From Pacificibacter sp. (GTDB lineage Bacteria > Pseudomonadota > Alphaproteobacteria > Rhodobacterales > Rhodobacteraceae), in the NCBI RefSeq assembly GCF_039769035.1, contig NZ_JBDMZG010000023.1, positions 4,429-68,428 of the forward strand: a stretch of DNA of 64,000 bases, in the 5' to 3' direction. The notes under the pieces were generated by a model, which made no database searches, was not told the origin of the DNA, and worked only from the letters and a program-made list of their open reading frames with translations. Position numbers and translations under genes: made by a program. Below are positions 35,570 to 62,127 of this stretch, piece after piece (position 1 is the first letter of the stretch; the number at the start of each line of letters is the position of its first letter).

Positions 35570-36470
35570 CTAAAGCGTGCATTTCAATCGAGGAAATTTA
35601 CGGCGGTTGCGCCTTCCCGCAAACACTTGAACCGACAACCCGCCCTTAAAACGGCGGGTGTTGTTGTTTTGGGGGTCTGTGAGATCTAAGATTGCAGCCA
35701 ATTCCCCAAAGAGTTCAATCATATGACCATCATCAGCTGCTTCATCCGGATGCAGGCGCACCTTTGGAACAAGGCTACGAAGTAGCTCTGAGGCTTCAGA
35801 TCTGTTCGTCTCGTCATTGAGGCTGTCCGACAAGGCGGTGATCTTCTTGCTGTAGGTCTCTGCGAGGGCAGGGTGTAGCACAATTGGATCTTGTTCGGGC
35901 AGGGCTGCGAGCTTTGCTGTTAACTCGGTTTTGCGCGCCTCTAGGGCATCCATTTTTGTCTTCATAGAGGCGTGGAACATGCCCGCTGTGATGGCGTAAA
36001 CGATCTTCTGGATCTGCACGCCGAGCTGTTTGAGCTCACGTTCAATGGAGCTTCGCGCTGATGTGCTCTCGCTGTGCAGTCGGTTCCATTCCCTTTGATA
36101 TTCCGTGACGAACTCCTTGAGCAGCTCTGGATGCATCAGCTTGGATTTGAGGCCACTCAGAATACGCTCTTCAACACTCTCGCGTTTGATGAGCTTGCGG
36201 TTGTCGCAAGTGCCTTTATTGAGAGCGGAAGCGCAGCCGTATTTGGTCTTGTTCATCAGGGTATAGGAGCCACCGTAGTGGCCACACTTAAGAAGACCTG
36301 AAAACAGGTGTTTGGTACGTTTTGCTCGAGCGAGTGGATTGCTATCGTTGGTCTGCTGGGCTTCGCTCAATGTTGATCTGATCACGCCTTGGCGCCGCTT
36401 GATCCGTTGCCACATATCAGCTTCGATCAGGCGAAGGTCTGGTACTGCGTTTTTCAAGTGGCCGCCTCCC
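35570..36470 (-). pseudogene. Large serine recombinase, C-terminal remnant (Zn-ribbon and coiled coil; catalytic domain lost)
   Basis: VPDLRLIEADMW, HLFSGLLKCGHYG (CxxC degraded), YGC..KGTCDN, LHPALAETY and IELFGELAAIL; the upstream sequence is not recombinase-like. Confidence 0.8.
35601..35625 (+). repeat. att-like 25-bp repeat, copy 1
   Basis: CGGCGGTTGCGCCTTCCCGCAAACA; 23/25 identical to 63136-63160; lies inside the recombinase 3' end. Confidence 0.7.
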
Positions 36471-36699
36471 AGTCCTGTCCAACGTCGCTGCGCAATGTCA
36501 ATTATGTTGTTAGGTTTCGACAATGGGCCAAACATGAAGACTTAAACTTTTGTGGCACAGTTTGTACGCTAAATGGGTCAGCCGCAGCCCGCTCTCAATC
36601 AAAAAATCTATGGACGCGATTTCCAAAGAATCGCCGCATTCTGTGCGGTTTGCTGAACGCACGTCGTCCATTTGCGTCAACAGCTCTTGCTGCTCGTGA

Positions 36700-37379
36700 C
36701 ACATCCCTCGTAATTACCCCGGAAGTCGCCTTAATCGCGTCGTGAGTCGGAAAAACCCCCATGAGCAAGGCCATAAGAAGTTCGACCGAATTAAGGCGGG
36801 AGCCGATTATGCGGAAACGCCCAACCGATCCGTTATACAGCTGCATCAAGACCTGCCCGCTGAGATTGCCGCACGGCAAGCTGAGCTCAACGCAAAGGAA
36901 GCAAAGCGTCTGAAAACATATGAGGCGCCTCGCGAAGAAACAAGAAGAACAGACCAAAATCGAGCCACGTCAAATGGACCTGATGACCCAAATGAAAAGT
37001 GCCGAAACGGAACTCCAAAAGGGGCGCGAGCAGATGGCTCAGAAAAAGGCGGAGGCGCTCAGATAATTCCATGAGGCCAACACCTGTCTTGCTGCAATCG
37101 AAGCCGTTGCAGCTGAGTTTGAAGCGAGCAACATTGGCTGAGATGAGCAGGGCAAGTTAAAGGTGAACGATGCGTCAAACCAAAGGCATTGCCTGTAGGC
37201 TCGCCAATATCGCGAAACGTTTCGTGGACCATCGCGCTCGTCTCGAGCGCAAAGAGCGGCTTTTTGGCTGGCTGACCGTAGCGCTTCGTACGTTTTTGAA
37301 ACGGGATGATTTGACGGAAAGCGCGCGTGTGGAGGCTGAGGCATTGCAGATAGAACTGGATGAGGGGCTGGAAGTTTAG
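36700..37379 (+). pseudogene. Fragmented coiled-coil gene, possibly a mobilisation/relaxase C-terminus
   Basis: Consecutive helical, charged fragments in shifting frames (36742-37074, MDLMTQMKSAETELQKG..., 37170-37379) next to the recombinase remnant; family not firmly recognised. Confidence 0.3.
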
Positions 37380-37384
37380 ATCAA

Positions 37385-37406
37385 GTGGCACAGTATTAGG
37401 AGGCCA
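37385..37406 (+). mobile_element. Isolated IS3-family (IS407-group-like) right inverted repeat
   Basis: GTGGCACAGTATTAGGAGGCCA is 20/22 identical to the reverse complement of the IS end at 62450-62471. Confidence 0.7.
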
Positions 37407-37709
37407 AGACAAAGCAATTGATCTAACGCGCCTAAAGCGAATACTGCATCGCCTAGCGCTTCGGCGCAGCCAGTGCTAAAAACACCTGACCTCAATGAGT
37501 TAAGTTTGCAGATCAAGACAGGGGATGTCGCAATGTTCTTAACTTGGTAAGATACTGTATTGAAGATATACTGTCCTAAAAGCCAGCCCTGCTATGTATT
37601 CATTTAGTGCCCCAAAAGTTTGCATTGACTTTGCGGGTCTTATGGCGGGCGTAAATGTAAACGTCATAGATGCTATGAAGGTGGCTATGTGGCCAAGAAA
37701 CGAGCGACA

Positions 37710-38399
37710 ATGAGAGTCACGTACAAAGAAGTCAAAGCGGATATCTTGGCTAAGATTGTCAGGGGCGATTGGGGGCCGGGCGAATTGGTTCCCAACGAAA
37801 TGGATCTGACGGAAACCTACAATTGCGCCCGCGCCACAGTGAACCGCGCGATGCGCGAGCTTGCGGATGAAGGCATTATTGAGAGACGCCGCAAAGCAGG
37901 CACGCGCGTGCGCGAGACCCGCATTCTTCAGGCCAAATTTGATATTCCAGTGTTGCGCAACGAAATCGAAGCGCTCAACGCGGAATACAGATATTCATTG
38001 GTGTCTAGTAGCGTTGAAAACGCGCCTGATTGGCTGCGAGCGCGCCTGCAATTGCCCAAGGCAGCAGATGTACTGCATCTCATTTGCATGCACTATGCAG
38101 ACGGAAACCCATATCAATACGAAGATCGCTGGATCAATCTTGATGCGTTGCCGCAAGCGAGAGAGATTGATTTTTCCAAACTCGGTCCAAATGATTGGTT
38201 GATGAGTGAAATACCATACTCAGAAGCTGAAATTAGCTTTTCTGCAGCATTGGCAGACAAAGAGATGACTGAGTTTTTGGAATGTGCTGTAGGGGATCCG
38301 ATTTTCATCGTCGAGAGATCTACGTGGCACGCTGAGCAAGCGATGACCTATGTTAGGTTGTCGCACAAGCCTGGGCACCGGATGACAACGCGCTATTGA
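37710..38399 (+). CDS. hutC: Histidine utilization repressor (GntR/UTRA)
   Basis: wHTH PNEMDL..CARATVNRAMREL..RRRKAGTRV plus UTRA YEDRWINL; convergent with hutU. Confidence 0.85.
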   Translation: MRVTYKEVKADILAKIVRGDWGPGELVPNEMDLTETYNCARATVNRAMRELADEGIIERRRKAGTRVRETRILQAKFDIPVLRNEIEALNAEYRYSLVSSSVENAPDWLRARLQLPKAADVLHLICMHYADGNPYQYEDRWINLDALPQAREIDFSKLGPNDWLMSEIPYSEAEISFSAALADKEMTEFLECAVGDPIFIVERSTWHAEQAMTYVRLSHKPGHRMTTRY

Positions 38400-38473: not shown

Positions 38474-40144
38474 TTACCCAAGAATACCGGGCAGATTTAG
38501 ATCATGCGCGCGGGCACATGCTTTGGCGTCATCATAGCCCGCATCGGCGTGACGCATGACACCTGTGGCCGGATCGTTCCACAAGACACGTTCAATGCGG
38601 CGATCCGCATCCTCAGAGCCGTCACAGCAAATCACCATGCCGGAGTGTTGCGAAAAGCCTATGCCAACGCCGCCGCCGTGGTGTAATGACACCCAAGTCG
38701 CGCCTGAAGCTGTGTTTAGAAGCGCATTCAAAAGCGGCCAGTCCGATACAGCATCTGAGCCGTCCATCATCGCCTCTGTTTCGCGATTGGGGGAGGCGAC
38801 CGATCCTGAGTCGAGGTGGTCGCGGCCAATCACGATCGGCGCGCTGAGCTCGCCAGTGCGAACCATTTCGTTGAAGGCAAGACCTAGCTTGTGGCGAATG
38901 CCCAAACCAACCCAGCAGATGCGTGCAGGCAAGCCTTGGAATTCGATACGTTCGCGAGCCATATCGAGCCAAGTGTGCAGATGCTTGTCCTCGGAAAGAA
39001 TTTCCTTAACTTTGGCGTCTGTTTTGTAGATGTCCTCTGGATCACCAGACAGCGCCGCCCAGCGGAACGGACCGATGCCGCGGCAAAAGAGCGGACGGAT
39101 ATATGCTGGAACGAAGCCTGGGAAATCAAAGGCGTTTTCAAGACCTTCTTCAAGCGCAACCTGGCGAATGTTGTTGCCGTAATCAAACGTAGGAATGCCC
39201 AGTTTCTGGAAATCGATCATCGCTGCTACATGCGCTTTCATCGAGGCGCGGGCGGCAGCTTCTACAGCCTTCGGATCGCTTTCGCGTTTCTCTTTCCATT
39301 GCGCCATGCTCCAACCTTGGGGCAGGTAACCGTTGATTGGGTCATGCGCAGAGGTTTGATCTGTGACCATATCTGGACGCACGCCGCGCTTTGCGATTTG
39401 CGCAAAGACATCTGCCGCATTGCCCAAAAGGCCAACAGATTTTGCTTCACCAGCGGCGGTCCATTTTTCGATCAACGCCAAAGCTTCGTCCAACGTATCG
39501 GCGCGCTCATCTACATAACGGGTGCGCAGGCGGAAATCGATGCTGTCTGGGTTACATTCAACAGCCAAGCAGCATGCGCCTGCCATAACTGCCGCCAAAG
39601 GTTGCGCGCCGCCCATGCCGCCAAGGCCGCCTGTGAGGACCCATTTGCCCGTCAGATCGCCGCCGTAATGTTGGCGACCAGCCTCGACGAAGGTTTCATA
39701 CGTCCCCTGCACGATGCCTTGGGAGCCGATGTAAATCCAAGAGCCGGCCGTCATCTGGCCGTACATGGCCAAGCCCTTTTTATCGAGCTCATTGAAGTGA
39801 TCCCAATTTGCCCAATGCGGTACGAGGTTGGAGTTAGCGATCAAAACGCGTGGGGCGTCTTTGTGGGTTTGGAACACGCCGACAGGCTTTCCAGACTGCA
39901 CCATCAACGTTTGATCTTCTTCAAGGTTTTTCAGTGCCTCAACGATGAGATCAAAATCTTTCCATGTGCGCGCAGCGCGCCCGATACCGCCGTACACCAC
40001 CAGTTCATGGGGGTTTTCGGCTACATCAGGATGGAGGTTGTTCATCAACATCCGCATCGGCGCTTCGGTCAGCCAGCTTTTGGCAGTGATGTCAGAGCCC
40101 GTCGCGGGGAAAATATCACGGGTGTTCTTGTGGGGATCGCTCAT
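38474..40144 (-). CDS. hutU: Urocanate hydratase
   Basis: [62 protein letters not shown] and [18 protein letters not shown]. Confidence 0.97.
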
Positions 40145-40941
40145 GATGTGCCTTTCGGGAAAGGGGCCAATTCGGCCAGTTTGGTCAAAATTGATTGGAG
40201 GTGAGGACGCAGCTTTGCGGCTTTTTCCTCGTCATAAGTCCAAGGGCTTGTCTCAGATTGCAGATACATGCTTTGCGCCAATTCCATTTGGATCGCGTGA
40301 AAACCTTCTGCAGGGCGGCCATAAGCGCGGGTCGTCCAGCCGCCTTTAAAGCGGCCATTGGTGACTGAGGAATAACCTTCTGCAGCGGCGCAAATGTCTT
40401 GGGTGATTTGCGCGACCTTCGGATCGCATGTGGTGCCTAGATTCGTCCCGATGTTGAAGTCGGGCAGGGTGCCTTCGAACAGAAAAGGGATGTCCGATCG
40501 GATCGAATGGCAGTCATACAGAATGACAAAACCATGTAGGCTCTTAACACGCTCAAGTTCGGCCACAAGGGCGGCGTGATAGGGCGCATGAAAAGCCAGA
40601 CGACGTGTTTCATTAGTCGCAGCATCGGGTGCCTTGTCCCAAATATCATGGCCGTCAAAGTCAGTGAGCGGCACCAGACCTGTCGTGTTTTGGCCAGGGT
40701 AGAGCGACACACCAGAGGGATCACGATTGGCGTCCACAACATAGCGGTGAAACGTTGCGCGCACAGTCGTGACGTCGGGCAAGAGGCCCTCATAGAGCGT
40801 GTGAATGTGCCAATCCGTATCATCCAATCCGCGCCCGCGGTCGTTGAGATCCGCCAAAACATCCTCTGGTACATAAGTTCCTGTGTGTGGCAGGCCCAAA
40901 ACGATCGGGCTATCACCTTGTGTGATTTCTACGGGTGTCAT
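40141..40941 (-). CDS. hutG: N-formylglutamate deformylase
   Basis: [40 protein letters not shown] and HAIQMELAQ. Confidence 0.93.
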
Positions 40942-41033
40942 GGTGTCATCTCCTGCGTGTCGCTGGCTGCTGTGGTAATGTCCTCGGATGCGATCATTGT
41001 TGCCGCCTCAGACTTAAAAGGCTGCGGGCTCAC
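40938..41033 (-). pseudogene. 31-codon ORF at the hutH position, probable in-frame deletion scar of hutH
   Basis: GTG overlaps the hutI stop (GTGA) behind GGAGG; TGA overlaps the hutG start (ATGA); translation [31 protein letters not shown]. Confidence 0.55.
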
Positions 41034-42241
41034 AATTTGCCTCCGAAAATACGCGCGTGAAGTGGGTTGAAGCCAATCCGATAAGAGAGTTCGGCTGGGT
41101 GTTTGATGTCCCAAACGGCCATGTCAGCACGCATGCCAACAGCAAGTGTGCCCGTGTCCGTTAGGCCCAAAGCACGCGCTGCGTTTTGCGTCACGCCGCG
41201 CAGGGTTTCTTCGGGTGTCATACGAAACAGAGTGCACCCCATGTTGAGGGTGAGCAGCAGCGAATTTAGGGGGGACGATCCGGGGTTGATGTCTGTCGCG
41301 AGCGCCATCGGCACCTTGTGTTGGCGCAGCGCATCGATTGGCGGCGCTTGTGTTTCGCGCAAGGTGTAGAACGCACCGGGCAGGATGACAGCAACCGTGC
41401 CCGCATCCTTCATGGCGACGACGCCGTCCTCGTCCAGATATTCGATATGGTCGGCAGACATAGCGCCATAGCGTGCAGCCAGTTTTGCGCCGCCGAGGTT
41501 GGAGAGCTGTTCAGCATGCAGCTTGACCGGTAAGCCCAGCTCCTGAGCCACATCAAACACGCGCGCGATTTGTTCAGGCTGAAAAGCGATGCCTTCGCAA
41601 AACCCGTCCACAGCGTCGACCAAGCCTTCGGCATGGGCTGCGCGTAGGGCAGGGATGCAGACATTATCGATGTACGCATCATCTCGACCGGCATATTCAG
41701 CTGGTGTTGCATGCGCGCCAAGGAAGGTCGTTTTCACACGTAAGGGGCGGTGTTTCGGGATCGCGCGGGCGACACGCAGCATGCGCAGCTCGGTCTCCAG
41801 ATCCAAGCCATAACCAGATTTCACTTCAATACATGTGACGCCTTCTGCAATCAAAACATCCACTCGGCGCAAGGCATCGCGAAGCAGGTCTTCTTCGGTT
41901 GCAGCGCGTGTGGCATTGACCGTCGATACAATCCCGCCGCCTGCGCGTGCGACCTCTTCATAGCTGGCGCCACTCAGTCGCATCTCGAACTCTGCTGCGC
42001 GGTCGCCGCCATGTACAATATGCGTATGGCAATCGATCAGCCCAGGGGTGACGAGGCGACCACCAAGGTTGGTTTCAGGCAGAGCTTTATACTGTTCAGG
42101 GATCTTGGACTGAGGTCCGATCCAATCGATAACCCCGTCCACGACTGGCACTGCTGCATCTTCGATCAGTCCGTATGGCGCGTCTGTTTCACCCATTGTC
42201 ACAAGATTCAGGTGGGAGAAGAGTCTGTTGTCTTTCGGCAT
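41030..42241 (-). CDS. hutI: Imidazolonepropionase
   Basis: [41 protein letters not shown] and [10 protein letters not shown]. Confidence 0.96.
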
Positions 42242-42268
42242 TATCAATCCGGTTTGGCTAAGAATATA

Positions 42269-42312
42269 CATTTAAGGTATGCAAAGATATGCTTTATGTC
42301 TATACATAAAGC
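42269..42312. promoter_or_regulatory. HutC operator box 1 within a duplicated 40-bp promoter block
   Basis: GCTTTATGT-CTAT-ACATAAAGC palindrome with core TATGTCTATACATA upstream of hutI. Confidence 0.8.
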
Positions 42313-50831: not shown

Positions 50832-51099
50832 AGACTTAAGCAATTAACGACCTGTCAATAAATGGTTGAAAGCACACAGAACGGAAAATCTTGATTTAAT
50901 TCACAACAAGTCAAGTTAACCATTTGAAATATAAGTATTAATAATATTGCGAATGCGGAGGGTATGCTCATTTTTTGAGCTGATTTTGAGAGTTGTCACG
51001 CAAAAACGCAATTTTGCTCGCATTTAGCACATGTTGAACCCCGCATTTCCCACATAAGAATTGCTGAGTTTTATACTTCTCAGGATGACCGGAGCGACG

Positions 51100-52569
51100 A
51101 TGCAATACGATAAGCAAACCCCTACAACTGAATTGACAGGTGATATGTTGACCTGCGAAGTCCTCGTGGCGATCTCGAAGGGACAAATGCATGCGAGCTT
51201 ATCTGAAGCAGCAACACAGCGTATAGCCGAGTCTCGCAAGCATGTGGATAAGATTGTCAATGAAAGGCGTCCTGCATACGGTATTACAACGGGAGTTGGA
51301 TCTCAAAAAGATCATCAAATCGATATGGAGGCTGTCGCCTTGTACAATCGGCGTTTGGTGAAAGGGCATGCGACGCGTGTGCCGGGGCCATCTTACGACC
51401 CTTCGATTGTGCGCGGCGCATTGGTCGTCCTCTTGAATGGGTTCGCCAAAGGTGGATCTGGTGTCACACCGGAGCTGACAAAAATTTTGAAACAGAAAAT
51501 TTCCGCGAGCGAGATGCCAACAATTGATGCAAGCGGATCGGTCAGTGCATCCGACCTTGTGCCTCTGGCTCAAACCGCCGACTGGTTGCTATCAAGCGAA
51601 GACGCCGAGTCAGCAGGACTGCCCAAGGCAAAAGAAACGCTCTCTTTGATCAACTGGAATGCATTTACTCTGTCCGAAGGGGCGCAGCACATAACGGAAC
51701 TGCTGCGTTTGCTGGACGTTTATACTCTTGCGTTGGCGACAACATACGAAGGCTTTCGAAGCAATCTTGATGCCATTGCGGAGCCCGTGAATGCGCTTCA
51801 CCGGCGAGGCGGACAGTCTAAAGTTGCGGCCGATCTGCGGGCTCACCTTAAGGGCAGTGCGCTTTGGCAATCTGGTGCCTCGCGGTTCCTCCAAGATCCT
51901 CTAAGCTTTCGGACGGCCTCACAGATCCATGGGGCTACATTTGAGTGCTTTAAGTCGCTAGAATCCGTTTGGAACAGCGAGTTGAACACCGTCAATGACA
52001 ACCCTATTATTGATCGCGCTGATGGTCGGGCATATTCACATGGCAACATGGACACCACGCGGTTTACGCTGGCGCTGGACACTGCGCGGCAAGCCTTGGC
52101 TAAGGTGGTGGATGTGTCTGGTGAGCGTATTCACAAACAACAATGGCCCGTTTTTTCCGGTCTGCCTATTGGCCTTTCTGAAGAGGATTCCGCGACTGGG
52201 GGCGTTCAGTTTTTGAACCTTGGGCACATCTCTTCTTCCCTGATCACATCGGTGAAAATTTGGGCCACACCACACTTGCTAAACTCAGTTGGACAGGTGG
52301 CTGATGGGGTTGAAGACACTGCAAGCCATGCCATGCACGCCGTACATGATTTGAAAAGGCAATTGGATGCGAGCTGGAAGATTGCCGCTTTAGAAATGCT
52401 GGTGGCTGTTTGGGCCATTCACCGCCGTAAATTGCCTTTGGATGAGTTGGGAAAAGATGTGCGAGAGGTGTATCAAACGCTTCTCCCTTTGCTGCCCATC
52501 GGTCATGAAGGTGATGCAGTTTTCGATCTGGCGGAGGTCATAGCTGCGGTTAAGGCAATCAGGGTTTAG
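51100..52569 (+). CDS. HAL/PAL-superfamily lyase lacking the MIO motif (lyase 1)
   Basis: YGITTGVG, NGFAKGGSGV, QDPLSFR..QIHGA, NTVNDNP, HGN and VED; GSVSASDL at 51535-51558 instead of GSVGASGDL. Confidence 0.85.
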   Translation: MQYDKQTPTTELTGDMLTCEVLVAISKGQMHASLSEAATQRIAESRKHVDKIVNERRPAYGITTGVGSQKDHQIDMEAVALYNRRLVKGHATRVPGPSYDPSIVRGALVVLLNGFAKGGSGVTPELTKILKQKISASEMPTIDASGSVSASDLVPLAQTADWLLSSEDAESAGLPKAKETLSLINWNAFTLSEGAQHITELLRLLDVYTLALATTYEGFRSNLDAIAEPVNALHRRGGQSKVAADLRAHLKGSALWQSGASRFLQDPLSFRTASQIHGATFECFKSLESVWNSELNTVNDNPIIDRADGRAYSHGNMDTTRFTLALDTARQALAKVVDVSGERIHKQQWPVFSGLPIGLSEEDSATGGVQFLNLGHISSSLITSVKIWATPHLLNSVGQVADGVEDTASHAMHAVHDLKRQLDASWKIAALEMLVAVWAIHRRKLPLDELGKDVREVYQTLLPLLPIGHEGDAVFDLAEVIAAVKAIRV

Positions 52570-53578: not shown

Positions 53579-54589
53579 ATGTCGCGTATGGAAATTGAAT
53601 ATTTGGGCAAACCGGAAATCGATGCACTGGCTCTGACGAACGATGAAATTTTAAATGCCATCGAGCAGGGCTTGATTGCAGCTGGGCAGGGCAAAACCGT
53701 TATCGAGCCGCGCATGCACCTGACCCCTGACCCGAGCTTCGATGGGCATTTCAACGTTCTGCGCGGATATGTTGAGCCGCTCAACTATGCTGGCGTTAAA
53801 GTCGTGGGTGATTTTGTCGACAACTACAAACATGGGTTACCCAGTGAGTTGGCCCTGCTGAACCTGTTCTGTCCACGCACTGGTGCGCCCAAAGCCGTGA
53901 TCGATGCCGCAGGCATTACGGATATGCGGACGGGAGCATTGACTGCGCTCGGGGCGAAATGGCTTGGTCCAAAAAATCCAAAAGTATTGGGGCACCTTGG
54001 GGCCCGAGGGACGTCCTATTGGAATGTGCGTCTTCTCGATCACCTTTTTGACTTTGAAGAAATTCGTGTGCATTCGCGCCGCCCAGAAAGCCGCAATGCT
54101 TTTGCAGAGAAGCTGACACAGGACCTCGGCAAGAAAATCACTGTAACGGAAGATTGGGAAAGCTGCCTTAAAAGCGCTGACATTATGATAGAAGCAACGC
54201 GTCTGAATGAACCAACGCCAAAGTTCGACCGGTCATGGGTGAAAAAAGGAAGCTTGGTCATACCGTATGGCACGATGAGCACGCTGCCGTTGGATTTCGT
54301 GGAGGGCATAGACAAATTCGTCATGGATGATTTGGGGCAAATGCGTGCGGGGCACCTCGGAGCACTGCGGCCACATATTGATGCGGGTCTGATCTCAGAA
54401 GAGAACTTTTACGCAGAGATCGGTGAGATAGCAGCCGGATTGAAACCTGGACGTGAACATGAGGATGAGACCATCTTGTTTTGGCACCGGGGTATGTCGA
54501 CCGGCGATATCGCTTTGGGAGCAGCGATTTTGGAAAAAGCACGCGCACGCGGCAATGTGCAAAATCTGCTTTACCGAGAAGACCAATGA
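53579..54589 (+). CDS. Ornithine cyclodeaminase / mu-crystallin family protein
   Basis: GVKVVGDF, TDMRTGA, GARG Rossmann motif, ADIMIEAT, EIGEIAAG..GRE and GDIALG. Confidence 0.88.
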   Translation: MSRMEIEYLGKPEIDALALTNDEILNAIEQGLIAAGQGKTVIEPRMHLTPDPSFDGHFNVLRGYVEPLNYAGVKVVGDFVDNYKHGLPSELALLNLFCPRTGAPKAVIDAAGITDMRTGALTALGAKWLGPKNPKVLGHLGARGTSYWNVRLLDHLFDFEEIRVHSRRPESRNAFAEKLTQDLGKKITVTEDWESCLKSADIMIEATRLNEPTPKFDRSWVKKGSLVIPYGTMSTLPLDFVEGIDKFVMDDLGQMRAGHLGALRPHIDAGLISEENFYAEIGEIAAGLKPGREHEDETILFWHRGMSTGDIALGAAILEKARARGNVQNLLYREDQ

Positions 54590-56115
54590 AAGCGCTGAGA
54601 TTAGACGGTTCAAACTTGACTGTTGGCGTCTTGGCGCGAGCGGCTTGTGGGGAATACCAAGTCGAGCTTTCAGACACGGGCTTAGAACGCATGCGCCGCG
54701 CGCGAGCACTTGTGGACCGCGTGATCGAACAGCGCGTTCCTGTCTACGGTGTGACAACTGGCCTTGGGGCCAGATCATCCGAAGCGCTCGATGCGCACAC
54801 CTTGCAGGAATTCTCAATCCAAACTCTGCGTGGGCGGGCGCAAGCGATGGGGTCAAAGGCGCCCCGCGAAATTGTGCGCGCCGCCATGATCGTCAGGGCG
54901 AACACAATGCTGACGGGATATAGTGGCGCTCGGCCGCAAGTCGCGCTGCATCTAGCGGCCTGTCTGAATGCCAATTTGACCCCTGTCGTTGGTGAGGTCG
55001 GCTCGATTGGCGCCGCAGATCTTGTGCAGAACGCAACGCTTGGTCTTGCTTTGATTGGCGAAGGAGAGATGCAAGATGCGTCAGGTGAAATCGGGCCGAG
55101 CGCTGATAAAATGCGTGCATACGGCATCACCCCACTGACGTTGGGGCCCAAAGACGGCTTGGCTTTGGCCAATCATACAGGCTTTTCAAGTGGAGCTGCT
55201 GCTCTGGCGTGTCATGCCGCTGAGGTTGCATTTGAAGTGGCGCAAACGGCGGCCTCTTTGTCATTAGAAGCCTTTCGCGCCAATTTAACCCCCTTCAAAC
55301 ACAGCGTGCTTGCGGCGAAACCGTTGCCCGGGCAAAGCTTGGTGGCCGCAGGGCTGAGAGCGCGCTTAGAGGGGAGTTTGCTGTGGGATGAAAAACATGC
55401 ACGCCGTCTTCAAGATCCGCTGTCCTATCGCAATATCTGCCAAATTCATGGGGCGACCGCCAGTGCCTTAGAGCAGGCTCGATTGGTCGTTGAGATTGAA
55501 GCGAACGGCTCAAGTGACAATCCGATTGCATTGATCGAAAGCGATGAGATTATCTCGTGCGGCAACTACTATACGGCTGAATTGGGTCAGGGGATTGAGG
55601 GGATAAGCCGCGCAATCGCCTCGCAGGCCATGGCTCAATTGTCGCGGATGTCCAAACTGCTTCATCCTGACTTTAGCGGGCTGCCCGCATTTTTGGCGCA
55701 GGAGAACAGTGGATCAAATGGGTTCGCTCCCGTTATGAAGACCGCCGAGGCGTGGTTGGCCAAACTCGTACATGCTGCGCAACCGGTGCCAATTTGGCCG
55801 AGCATCAATGCCAATGGGGTAGAAGATTGTCTGCCCAATTCACCACAGTCTATTTCTGCGTTGTCTACTGCGGTTGAGTGCATGCGCCATATGAATGCTC
55901 TGGAGCTTTTGATTGCTGCGCAAGCGATCGAGCTGCGTGCGTGTCAGGTTGAGATGGCGCCCTTTGTTCAAGGCACTTTCGCCATGGTGCGCACGCATGC
56001 AAAGGCTTTGACGATAGACCGCTCTTTTGGCTGCGATGTGGATGGGCTGGTGCAGGTCATGCGGGCTGGTGCAAGCTCCGCACTCTTTCCGGTGTGTGCT
56101 ATGTCGCGTAAATGA
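54586..56115 (+). CDS. HAL/PAL-superfamily lyase lacking the MIO motif (lyase 2)
   Basis: VYGVTTGLG, GYSGAR, LGPKDGLALAN, QDPLSYRNICQIHGA, SDNP and VED; GSIGAADL at 55000-55023; ATGA-coupled to the OCD gene. Confidence 0.85.
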   Translation: MKALRLDGSNLTVGVLARAACGEYQVELSDTGLERMRRARALVDRVIEQRVPVYGVTTGLGARSSEALDAHTLQEFSIQTLRGRAQAMGSKAPREIVRAAMIVRANTMLTGYSGARPQVALHLAACLNANLTPVVGEVGSIGAADLVQNATLGLALIGEGEMQDASGEIGPSADKMRAYGITPLTLGPKDGLALANHTGFSSGAAALACHAAEVAFEVAQTAASLSLEAFRANLTPFKHSVLAAKPLPGQSLVAAGLRARLEGSLLWDEKHARRLQDPLSYRNICQIHGATASALEQARLVVEIEANGSSDNPIALIESDEIISCGNYYTAELGQGIEGISRAIASQAMAQLSRMSKLLHPDFSGLPAFLAQENSGSNGFAPVMKTAEAWLAKLVHAAQPVPIWPSINANGVEDCLPNSPQSISALSTAVECMRHMNALELLIAAQAIELRACQVEMAPFVQGTFAMVRTHAKALTIDRSFGCDVDGLVQVMRAGASSALFPVCAMSRK

Positions 56116-60498: not shown

Positions 60499-60713
60499 GC
60501 GCCGTGTGAAAGTCAATGAGTGCTCCCTAATTGCTACGCAGCAATTCGTTGAGTTGAAATATAGGTCTAGAAAAGAGCTGCGCTATTAAACGACGTGCCG
60601 CACAGTTTCAAAACAGGTGAATGTCCGACTTCATGTTGTGACTTCACATGGTTGAGTGCGCAGTAGCACAGATTTTCGCGCTGATTTAAAACTTCACTAT
60701 GGCAAAAAAATTC

Positions 60714-60753
60714 CATTTAAGGTATGTGCTGATATGAGTTATGTCTATACATA
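60714..60753. promoter_or_regulatory. HutC operator box 3 / second copy of the 40-bp block
   Basis: CATTTAAGGTATGtgctGATATGagTTATGTCTATACATA; 34/40 identical to 42269-42308; upstream of hutF. Confidence 0.8.
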
Positions 60754-60768
60754 TAAACAGAGGTTGAA

Positions 60769-62127
60769 ATGATTTTTGCAAAGCAAGCACTGCTTTCAAG
60801 TGGATGGGCGTCAGGTGTTCGCCTCGATGTGACGCAGGGGACGATCACAAAAATTGAAACGCAGCAGCAGGCTCACGCAGGTGATGTGACAGTCGACACC
60901 CTCTTGCCTGCCTTGGCAAATCTACACAGTCACAGCTTTCAGCGGGCTATGGCAGGAATGACCGAATACCGCATGGCTGGTAAGGACAGTTTCTGGACGT
61001 GGCGCGATTTGATGTACAAGTTCACCTCAACGATATCAGCTGAACAAGTCGAGGCAATTGCAGCCTTTGTGTTCTTGGAAATGCAAGAGGCGGGCTATGC
61101 CAGCGTTGGTGAGTTTCACTACCTTCACCACCAACCGGGCGGCATGCCTTATGATGATCTTGGCGAACTGTCGTCCCGCATCGCATCCGCGGCAGATGTG
61201 ACCGGCATTGGCCTAACACATCTCCCAGTTCTCTATACATATGGCGGGGCTGGGCAGGTGCCGCTCAAAGCAGGACAGGCGCGTTTCGGAAACTCTGCCG
61301 ATCAGTTTAATGCATTGGTCGATAAAGCAAAAAACGCGGTGTCTTCCCTCGCAGATGATTGCCGCGTCGGCATCGCACCGCACTCATTGCGCGCGATATC
61401 GCCCGATGACCTCAAAGCCGTCTTGGCCGCTCGCTCCAACGGGCCAATCCATATTCATATTGCCGAACAACCCAAAGAAGTCGCTGATATTCAAGCTTGG
61501 CTCGGCGCACGTCCCGTTGAGTGGTTGCTGGCAAACACGGACGCCAATGAAGATTGGTGCCTGATCCATGCCACCCATATGACAGAAGTCGAAACAAAGA
61601 ACATGGCCCAGTCTGGCGTGGTTGCTGGCCTGTGCCCTGTCACCGAGGCCAATCTGGGAGATGGCCCGTTCAATGGACAGGCATATGTGAACCATGGTGG
61701 AGCCTTTGGTGTCGGATCTGACTCCAATGTTCTGATCTCATTGACGGAAGAGCTGCGTACTTTGGAATATTCGCAACGTCTGCGTGATGTTGCGCGAAAC
61801 ATCATGGTCAAAGGTGAGGGCTCCGTTGGGGCGAAACTCTATTGTGGTGCAGCAAAGGGCGGCGCGCAGGCGCTGAGCCGTCAAGCGGGCGACATTTCCG
61901 TTGGAAACCTCGCAGATCTTGTAGCCATCGACAGCACGGCGCCGGCACTCTGCGCGCTACGCCAAGATCAAATCCTCGATGGTCTTGTGTTCGCAGCGAA
62001 GGATACAGTCGTGACAGATGTTTGGTCCGCTGGCAGACACGCGGTGCAAACTGGCCGCCATGTGAAACGGGATGAGATCACTGCAGCCTACACCTCAGCA
62101 ATGCACGCTTTGGTGGCCTCGCTCTGA
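60769..62127 (+). CDS. hutF: Formimidoylglutamate deiminase
   Basis: NLHSHSFQRAMAGMTE, SFWTWR, GEFHYLHH, HIHIAEQPKEV, CPVTEANLGDG and GSDSNV. Confidence 0.96.
   Translation: MIFAKQALLSSGWASGVRLDVTQGTITKIETQQQAHAGDVTVDTLLPALANLHSHSFQRAMAGMTEYRMAGKDSFWTWRDLMYKFTSTISAEQVEAIAAFVFLEMQEAGYASVGEFHYLHHQPGGMPYDDLGELSSRIASAADVTGIGLTHLPVLYTYGGAGQVPLKAGQARFGNSADQFNALVDKAKNAVSSLADDCRVGIAPHSLRAISPDDLKAVLAARSNGPIHIHIAEQPKEVADIQAWLGARPVEWLLANTDANEDWCLIHATHMTEVETKNMAQSGVVAGLCPVTEANLGDGPFNGQAYVNHGGAFGVGSDSNVLISLTEELRTLEYSQRLRDVARNIMVKGEGSVGAKLYCGAAKGGAQALSRQAGDISVGNLADLVAIDSTAPALCALRQDQILDGLVFAAKDTVVTDVWSAGRHAVQTGRHVKRDEITAAYTSAMHALVASL

Follow-up and report, generated by a model that had tools for sequence, protein, structure and literature searches.

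The window, by which we mean the whole stretch of 64,000 nucleotides that was analysed, carries a hut operon in which a 31-codon open reading frame lies between hutI and hutG, and the question that it raises is what this frame is and why it stands there. The original prediction was that hutH had been lost from this position by a clean in-frame deletion, and that the remaining frame was retained because it keeps ribosomes coupled to hutG and hutU. The genes hutI, hutG, and hutU are all full-length and intact (Table 1). The 3' end of hutI reads ...TTC GGA GGC AAA TTG TGA, with the stop at 41030-41032, and the GTG at 41031-41033, which starts a 96-nt frame, consists of the last G of the hutI leucine codon and the TG of the hutI stop, giving a GTGA overlap. 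At the other end, the TGA of the small frame (40938-40940) overlaps the hutG ATG (40939-40941) in an ATGA. That TGA is made up from the hutG ATG and the first base of the second hutG codon, a base that is A in all relatives with an ATGA junction. A further ATGA overlap joins the hutG stop to the hutU start. The two overlaps, the GGAGG ribosome-binding site, and the 96 nt in frame were thus all present as first described. The arrangement is that expected of a translationally coupled cistron, with NTGA overlaps at both ends (41030-41033 and 40938-40941) and suitably spaced Shine-Dalgarno sites, each within the upstream cistron. The second of these, the AGGAG that belongs to hutG itself and lies inside the small frame, was absent from the original account. 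The longest hutI reading frame, starting at 42271, would encode 413 amino acids, and HutI proteins of relatives have 403 to 405; judging from the sequence, translation of hutI probably begins at the ATG at 42241 (MPKDNR...), giving 403 amino acids.

Table 1. Features of the hut locus in the window (positions of the window) and hutH-less or hutH-defective loci in other genomes of the family
Feature	Position or locus	Strand	Basis or remark
hutC repressor, convergent with hutU	37689..38399	+	NCBIfam equivalog
hutU, urocanate hydratase	38474..40144	-	NCBIfam equivalog, 950 bits
hutG, N-formylglutamate deformylase	40141..40941	-	NCBIfam equivalog, 351 bits
Very probable hutH relic, 31-codon GTG-initiated ORF	40938..41033	-	Sequence, HutH tail homology, metagenome junctions
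HutH-aligning part of relic, residues 5-30	40944..41021	-	Local alignment
AGGAG Shine-Dalgarno of hutG, inside relic	40950..40954	-	8 nt 5' of hutG ATG
hutI, imidazolonepropionase	41030..42271	-	NCBIfam equivalog, 482 bits
GGAGG Shine-Dalgarno-like site, in hutI 3' end	41040..41044	-	6 nt 5' of relic GTG
54-nt direct repeat, left copy	42255..42308		hutI 5' end and promoter
HAL-family paralogue 1	51061..52569	+	GSVSAS-DL, without Ala-Ser-Gly MIO triad; His and Glu-Asp positions kept
HAL-family paralogue 2	54481..56115	+	GSIGAA-DL, without MIO triad
54-nt direct repeat, right copy	60700..60753		80% identical, just 5' of hutF
hutF, formiminoglutamate deiminase	60769..62127	+	
G441 hutH relic (G441 is a congener of G075)	L063, G441:C58:7329-8213	-	294-codon open frame between hutI and hutG
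G392 hutH, split over three frames	L056, G392:C1 4515-6030		
hutH-less locus of G075	L053		
hutH-less locus of G145	L054		
hutH-less locus of G443	L066		

In each of 12 close relatives, hutH lies at exactly this position. The order hutI-hutH-hutG was found in all seven same-genus genomes that carry an orthologous hutG (61 to 79% identity) and in four of the five closest HutG relatives in public data (81 to 85% identity), each of the four with a 512-aa hutH; the fifth is a short contig that ends in a HutH-like tail directly 5' of hutG. In the closest relatives, the GGAGG...GTGA and ...ATGA junctions are identical to those of the window and flank an intact hutH of 512 to 514 amino acids, the hutI/hutH junction reading ...GGAGGCACAT(C/T)GTGAC... 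and the hutH/hutG junction ...ATGA.... The 4-nt overlaps (GTGA or ATGA between hutI and hutH, ATGA between hutH and hutG) occur in all relatives except the two most distant, and the same GGAGG precedes hutH in relatives. Every relative examined also has a purine-rich, Shine-Dalgarno-like site for hutG at the position of the AGGAG. Among 10 relatives with this spacing, it is CGGAG in six and the weaker CCGAG, CGAGG, or ACAGG in three, and it reads AGGAG in the window through a C-to-A change. The HutG proteins closest to that of the window (85%) come from genomes of other genera (G365 and G219), those of the same genus reaching only 61 to 79%. This points either to horizontal movement of the hut operon among roseobacters or to a very broad genus.

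The peptide itself carries the trace of HutH. The original prediction had noted that the stretch EAATMIAS..ITTAAS loosely resembles HutH C termini, and had proposed a comparison with the hutH ends of the closest relatives. When this alignment was run, the likeness proved real. Residues 5 to 30 of the mini-ORF are colinear with HutH residues 485 to 511 of 512 in local alignments against the whole HutH of each of the four closest relatives tested, an example being PDLEKAATLIASGDIVSAAGIDMPELST, followed by the stop, against a 27-residue counterpart. Smith-Waterman scores were 44 to 48 against 25 +/- 3.7 for shuffled sequences, none of 2,000 shuffles reached the score, and BLASTP of the mini-ORF against HutH gave E = 9e-4 in a single comparison. 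An open stretch of 29 codons of such composition has a probability of about 0.35, so the ORF as such is not beyond chance. The similarity to the HutH C terminus at a syntenic position is far beyond chance. Together with the gene order of the relatives and the shared junctions, this tail homology supports the predicted in-frame deletion, which we place at this locus with high confidence.

Compared with a hutH of 1,539 nt, 1,443 nt or 481 codons are missing. What was kept is the GTG start codon, then 3 to 7 codons that are not assigned to either end, and then the last 23 to 27 codons. Protein-level local alignment was used to place the relic; breakpoints from a single long-gap DNA alignment were dropped, as that alignment returned scattered spurious blocks. 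For relic codons 2 to 8, colinear positions match the hutH ends at 7 to 11 of 24 and random best hits reach 13 to 14 of 24, so these codons are not attributable to either end. The 5' breakpoint could fall anywhere from the start codon to codon 8, and the loss may have involved more than one event. The retained tail has also diverged. It shows 46 to 50% protein identity (58 to 64% for DNA) to the tails of relatives, against 72 to 76% (64 to 75% for DNA) between equally distant intact HutH tails, a drift of the peptide about twice that of intact tails, and the flanking hutI, hutG, and hutU show normal divergence. The low identity of the relic tail indicates that constraint on its amino acid sequence has been lifted. 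Among the 481 of 512 codons that were lost are those for the MIO triad and for every catalytic residue of hutH. The homology to HutH covers only the C-terminal tail, and the full-length HutH fold with its Ala-Ser-Gly MIO triad and a score above the family cut-off is lacking; with 31 residues and no NCBIfam match, the product is a relic or pseudogene and not a functional member of the HutH family (TIGR01225/PF00221). In our reading, the 96-nt frame is very probably a remnant of hutH left by one or a few deletions of about 1,443 nt in all, and it would now serve as a short translated spacer whose peptide has no function.

A good Shine-Dalgarno site, a start codon, and an open frame might also mark a small protein with a function of its own, or a leader peptide controlling the operon by attenuation; several observations weigh against this reading. 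The peptide matches no family, and a full HMMER scan found no homologues of it, of similar length or otherwise, among 1.84 billion representative proteins, a search of low power for a 31-aa query. Its sequence is a drifting copy of the HutH tail. For a leader peptide or attenuator one would look for histidine codons and alternative hairpins; the 31 codons include no histidine codon, and the spacer has no terminator or antiterminator structure. We therefore regard a functional small protein or leader peptide as very improbable. A structured RNA, riboswitch, or attenuator within the spacer was likewise considered and is ruled out by a fold z-score of -0.2, the lack of any match to an Rfam family, and the failure to find a promoter or a terminator there.

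The source genome is a draft of 223 contigs, and hutH might simply have been collapsed out of a metagenome-assembled contig. Junction-spanning contigs from seawater metagenomes of five studies, however, show zero differences from the window. These include contigs of 7.1 kb (X1, study P1), 22.9 kb with a depth of 130 (X2, study P2), and 1.8 kb (X5, study P1), a contig from study P3 (X3), and short pieces from studies P5 (X11) and P7 (X13). Across the relic there were zero SNPs, and no alternative form of the junction at more than 95% likeness was seen in metagenome contigs. Metagenome pieces of lower identity break exactly at the hutI stop and continue into the start of a hutH (VTTLTLSPGAV); these come from other species. 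The recurrence of the same junction in metagenomes of five studies argues that it is not an assembly error, and a collapse could not produce the divergence of the relic from the tails of its relatives. The chance that the junction is an artefact is, in our estimate, negligible.

Given a genuine in-frame relic of hutH, the origin and present working of the locus can be pictured as follows. The ancestral operon would have been hutI-GTGA-hutH-ATGA-hutG-ATGA-hutU, and a deletion internal to hutH would have left the hutI stop, the hutH Shine-Dalgarno site and start, the hutG Shine-Dalgarno site in the hutH tail, and the hutG start. Overlaps of the NTGA type between stop and start codons mediate translational coupling by termination-reinitiation, as in trpB-trpA and galT-galK of Escherichia coli, and from this established behavior we infer termination-reinitiation at both 4-nt overlaps here. 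Ribosomes finishing hutI at the UGA, or brought in by the GGAGG, would start at the overlapping GUG, read 31 codons, and stop at the UGA overlapping the hutG AUG, and reinitiation could follow there; hutG may also initiate by way of its own AGGAG. The relic would then be a short spacer that is translated, contains the hutG initiation region, and keeps the operon free of untranslated gaps, and its peptide would have no function of its own. A search of RNA runs found none that contains the stretch. An in-frame, nonpolar deletion would be the kind best tolerated as long as hutG and hutU were still needed.

Loss of hutH is not confined to this genome. In a survey of 400 genomes of the family, hutG was found in 170 and hutH in 212. 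Two of these genomes, G075 and G145, have the arrangement hutF<->hutI-hutG-hutU-hutC without hutH, and in both the hutI stop was read to overlap the hutG start in an ATGA. No HAL-family gene was found in either genome, which suggests urocanate-only pathways. The same hutH-less layout occurs in G443, a congener of G145, again with no HAL-family match found. In G392, a complete single-contig genome, hutH is split over three frames beside hutI, hutG, hutU, and hutF genes that look intact; this is either a recent pseudogene or a sequencing error. A partial hutH in G414 was not counted, as hutI is broken too in that single-contig assembly of 72% completeness, and we read it as a sequencing error. 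Intact hutH genes in G440 and G444, congeners of the hutH-losing genomes, indicate that the losses are recent at the genus level.

Another such locus is that of G441, where a relic of 294 codons shares an ATGA with the hutI stop at its start and terminates 51 nt 5' of hutG. The motif GSVGASGDL is replaced by KDRFSTSVY, the Ser-His motif by Ser-Tyr, and NQEDH by NQKNH, and about 200 central residues have been lost in frame. The product has 36 to 38% identity to any intact HutH, compared with 68 to 94% among the intact proteins, and from its sequence we judge it to be recognizably HutH and catalytically dead. When neutral substitutions were simulated up to the observed excess divergence, the frame remained free of stops in about 0.07% of trials (P ~0.0007), or in 1.3% (P = 0.013) under a conservative setting. 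Either the G441 frame has been held open by selection or the protein has taken on a new role; the observation fits the idea of coupling or of protection against polarity.

Whether selection also keeps the 31-codon frame open and in register, on the ground that full output of HutG and HutU needs translation through the relic, is the second part of the original prediction. The benefit could lie in termination-reinitiation, or in sparing the operon the Rho-dependent polarity that an untranslated stretch would invite. The start, the Shine-Dalgarno site, the frame, and the overlapping stop of the relic are all intact, successive genes of the operon are linked by 4-nt overlaps, and an internal deletion that stays in frame is of the nonpolar kind. 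The dead but open relic of G441 points the same way, and the hutH-less operons of G075, G145, and G443 have re-formed a direct ATGA overlap between hutI and hutG, as read in G075 and G145, so tight coupling seems to be favored here. Against this, the neutral probability of the state at this locus is not small. A chance of 1 in 3 for the frame, multiplied by 0.35 to 0.9 for freedom from stops, gives about 0.1 to 0.3, the stop-free probability being 0.62 to 0.95 after 10 to 60 random substitutions and 0.35 for a fully random sequence of the same composition. The start and stop triplets of the relic, moreover, simply arise from the codons that end hutI and begin hutG; since both overlaps are embedded in those codons, any deletion internal to hutH retains them. 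Having its own AGGAG and an initiation region predicted to be unstructured, hutG can probably initiate alone. The broken hutH of G392, lying beside apparently intact hut genes, indicates that an open frame is not obligatory, and the G441 relic could have gained a new protein function. Retention of the 31-codon frame for the sake of coupling is thus plausible on the sequence evidence, and we put its chances at this locus well below even.

The same evidence bears on a neutral leftover, in which the deletion happened to be in frame by luck, the ORF is inconsequential and will erode, and only the region with the hutG Shine-Dalgarno site and start is under selection. The neutral probability just given, the drift of the peptide, the Shine-Dalgarno site and predicted unstructured initiation region that hutG has for itself, and the complete loss of the spacer in other genera all suit this reading. 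It accounts less readily for the absence of any stop or frameshift from the relic of the window despite the drift, and the G441 relic shows that maintained open frames are possible at such a position. We give this neutral account a probability only just short of one-half. A broader and more tentative proposal, doubtful as a general rule at present, is that after the loss of a gene from inside a tightly coupled operon, selection may keep the leftover frame open and translated as a protein-free "ribosome bridge" that guards downstream expression through reinitiation, avoidance of Rho polarity, or both. The 31-codon and the 294-codon relics would then be two stages of one process, with the direct ATGA overlap of G075 and G145 as the end point.

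The surroundings of the operon offer a possible reason for the loss. No canonical hutH above the TIGR01225 cut-off was found in the genome of this bacterium (3.43 Mb, 98.7% complete), the only HAL-family matches being the two paralogues in the window. The closest relatives have hutF next to hutI in divergent orientation, whereas in the window 18.4 kb separates the two genes. This 18.4-kb insert is bracketed by the two copies of a 54-nt direct repeat that holds a palindromic ATGTCTATACATA box, and it contains a YeiH-like gene, hutD, a peptide/opine-type ABC importer, a LysR regulator, an ornithine-cyclodeaminase-family gene, and the two HAL-family paralogues. The first 17 nt of the longer hutI reading frame fall within this duplicated promoter block. 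On the other side of the locus, at positions 35570-37689 before hutC, a 321-aa ORF matches a serine recombinase (XisF model, 25.6 bits) only weakly and in part. Some 1.15 kb with no long ORF comes next, and the region may represent mobile-element debris beside the hut locus.

Both HAL-family paralogues have lost the MIO triad through a one-residue deletion, so neither is a canonical histidine ammonia-lyase, and the two were rejected as a simple replacement for hutH. The second is absent from same-genus relatives and has ergothionase (PDB 6s7j) among its best matches of solved structure. HAL-family members without MIO are trimethylammonia-lyases, among them one that forms urocanate from histidine betaine (bioRxiv 10.1101/2025.08.13.670108). 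From their sequences, the two MIO-less paralogues are likely to be trimethylammonia-lyases acting on histidine betaines. Urocanate would now be derived from histidine betaines or reach the cell from outside, making hutH dispensable while hutU, hutI, hutF, and hutG stay useful.

The relic can be set beside several known arrangements. It shares with the hutH of roseobacters its position, the GGAGG and GTGA overlap with hutI, and the ATGA overlap with hutG, and differs in that 481 of 512 codons are gone and the tail is 46 to 50% identical. Like the coupled cistrons trpB-trpA and galT-galK, it has 4-nt overlaps at both ends and a Shine-Dalgarno site in the preceding cistron, but here the middle cistron codes for no functional protein, and hutG has its own Shine-Dalgarno site. 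In engineered nonpolar deletions, too, the start, the last codons, and the frame are kept so that downstream genes stay expressed; the present deletion differs in being of natural origin and the sole form seen in metagenome contigs of five studies. The relic in G441 likewise lies between hutI and hutG, overlaps the hutI stop by 4 nt, and is dead and open, yet it has 294 codons instead of 31, ends 51 nt before hutG without an overlap, and is unlikely to be open under neutrality. The operons of G075, G145, and G443 also hold the urocanate-to-glutamate genes without hutH and differ in having no relic at all. A search of the literature on natural in-frame relics that preserve coupling found no paper.

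A gene relic in a coupled operon is a fresh example of a familiar kind. What sets this ordinary kind of relic apart is that nature has here produced, in unusually clean form, the in-frame nonpolar deletion used by geneticists, and that it is the sole form in a free-living marine bacterium across the metagenomes of several studies. The statistics of the G441 relic further hint that dead internal cistrons can stay open, an idea that is testable genome-wide. For the organism itself, the loss means that it makes no urocanate from histidine by the canonical enzyme and has kept the rest of the pathway, which fits the neighboring cofactor-less lyases that probably supply histidine betaines to it. Within the family, hutH has repeatedly been lost while hutI, hutG, and hutU were kept, the loss appearing as clean junctions, as a decayed open relic, and as a frameshifted copy, and this recurrence indicates that the urocanate branch leads an existence independent of hutH in marine roseobacters.
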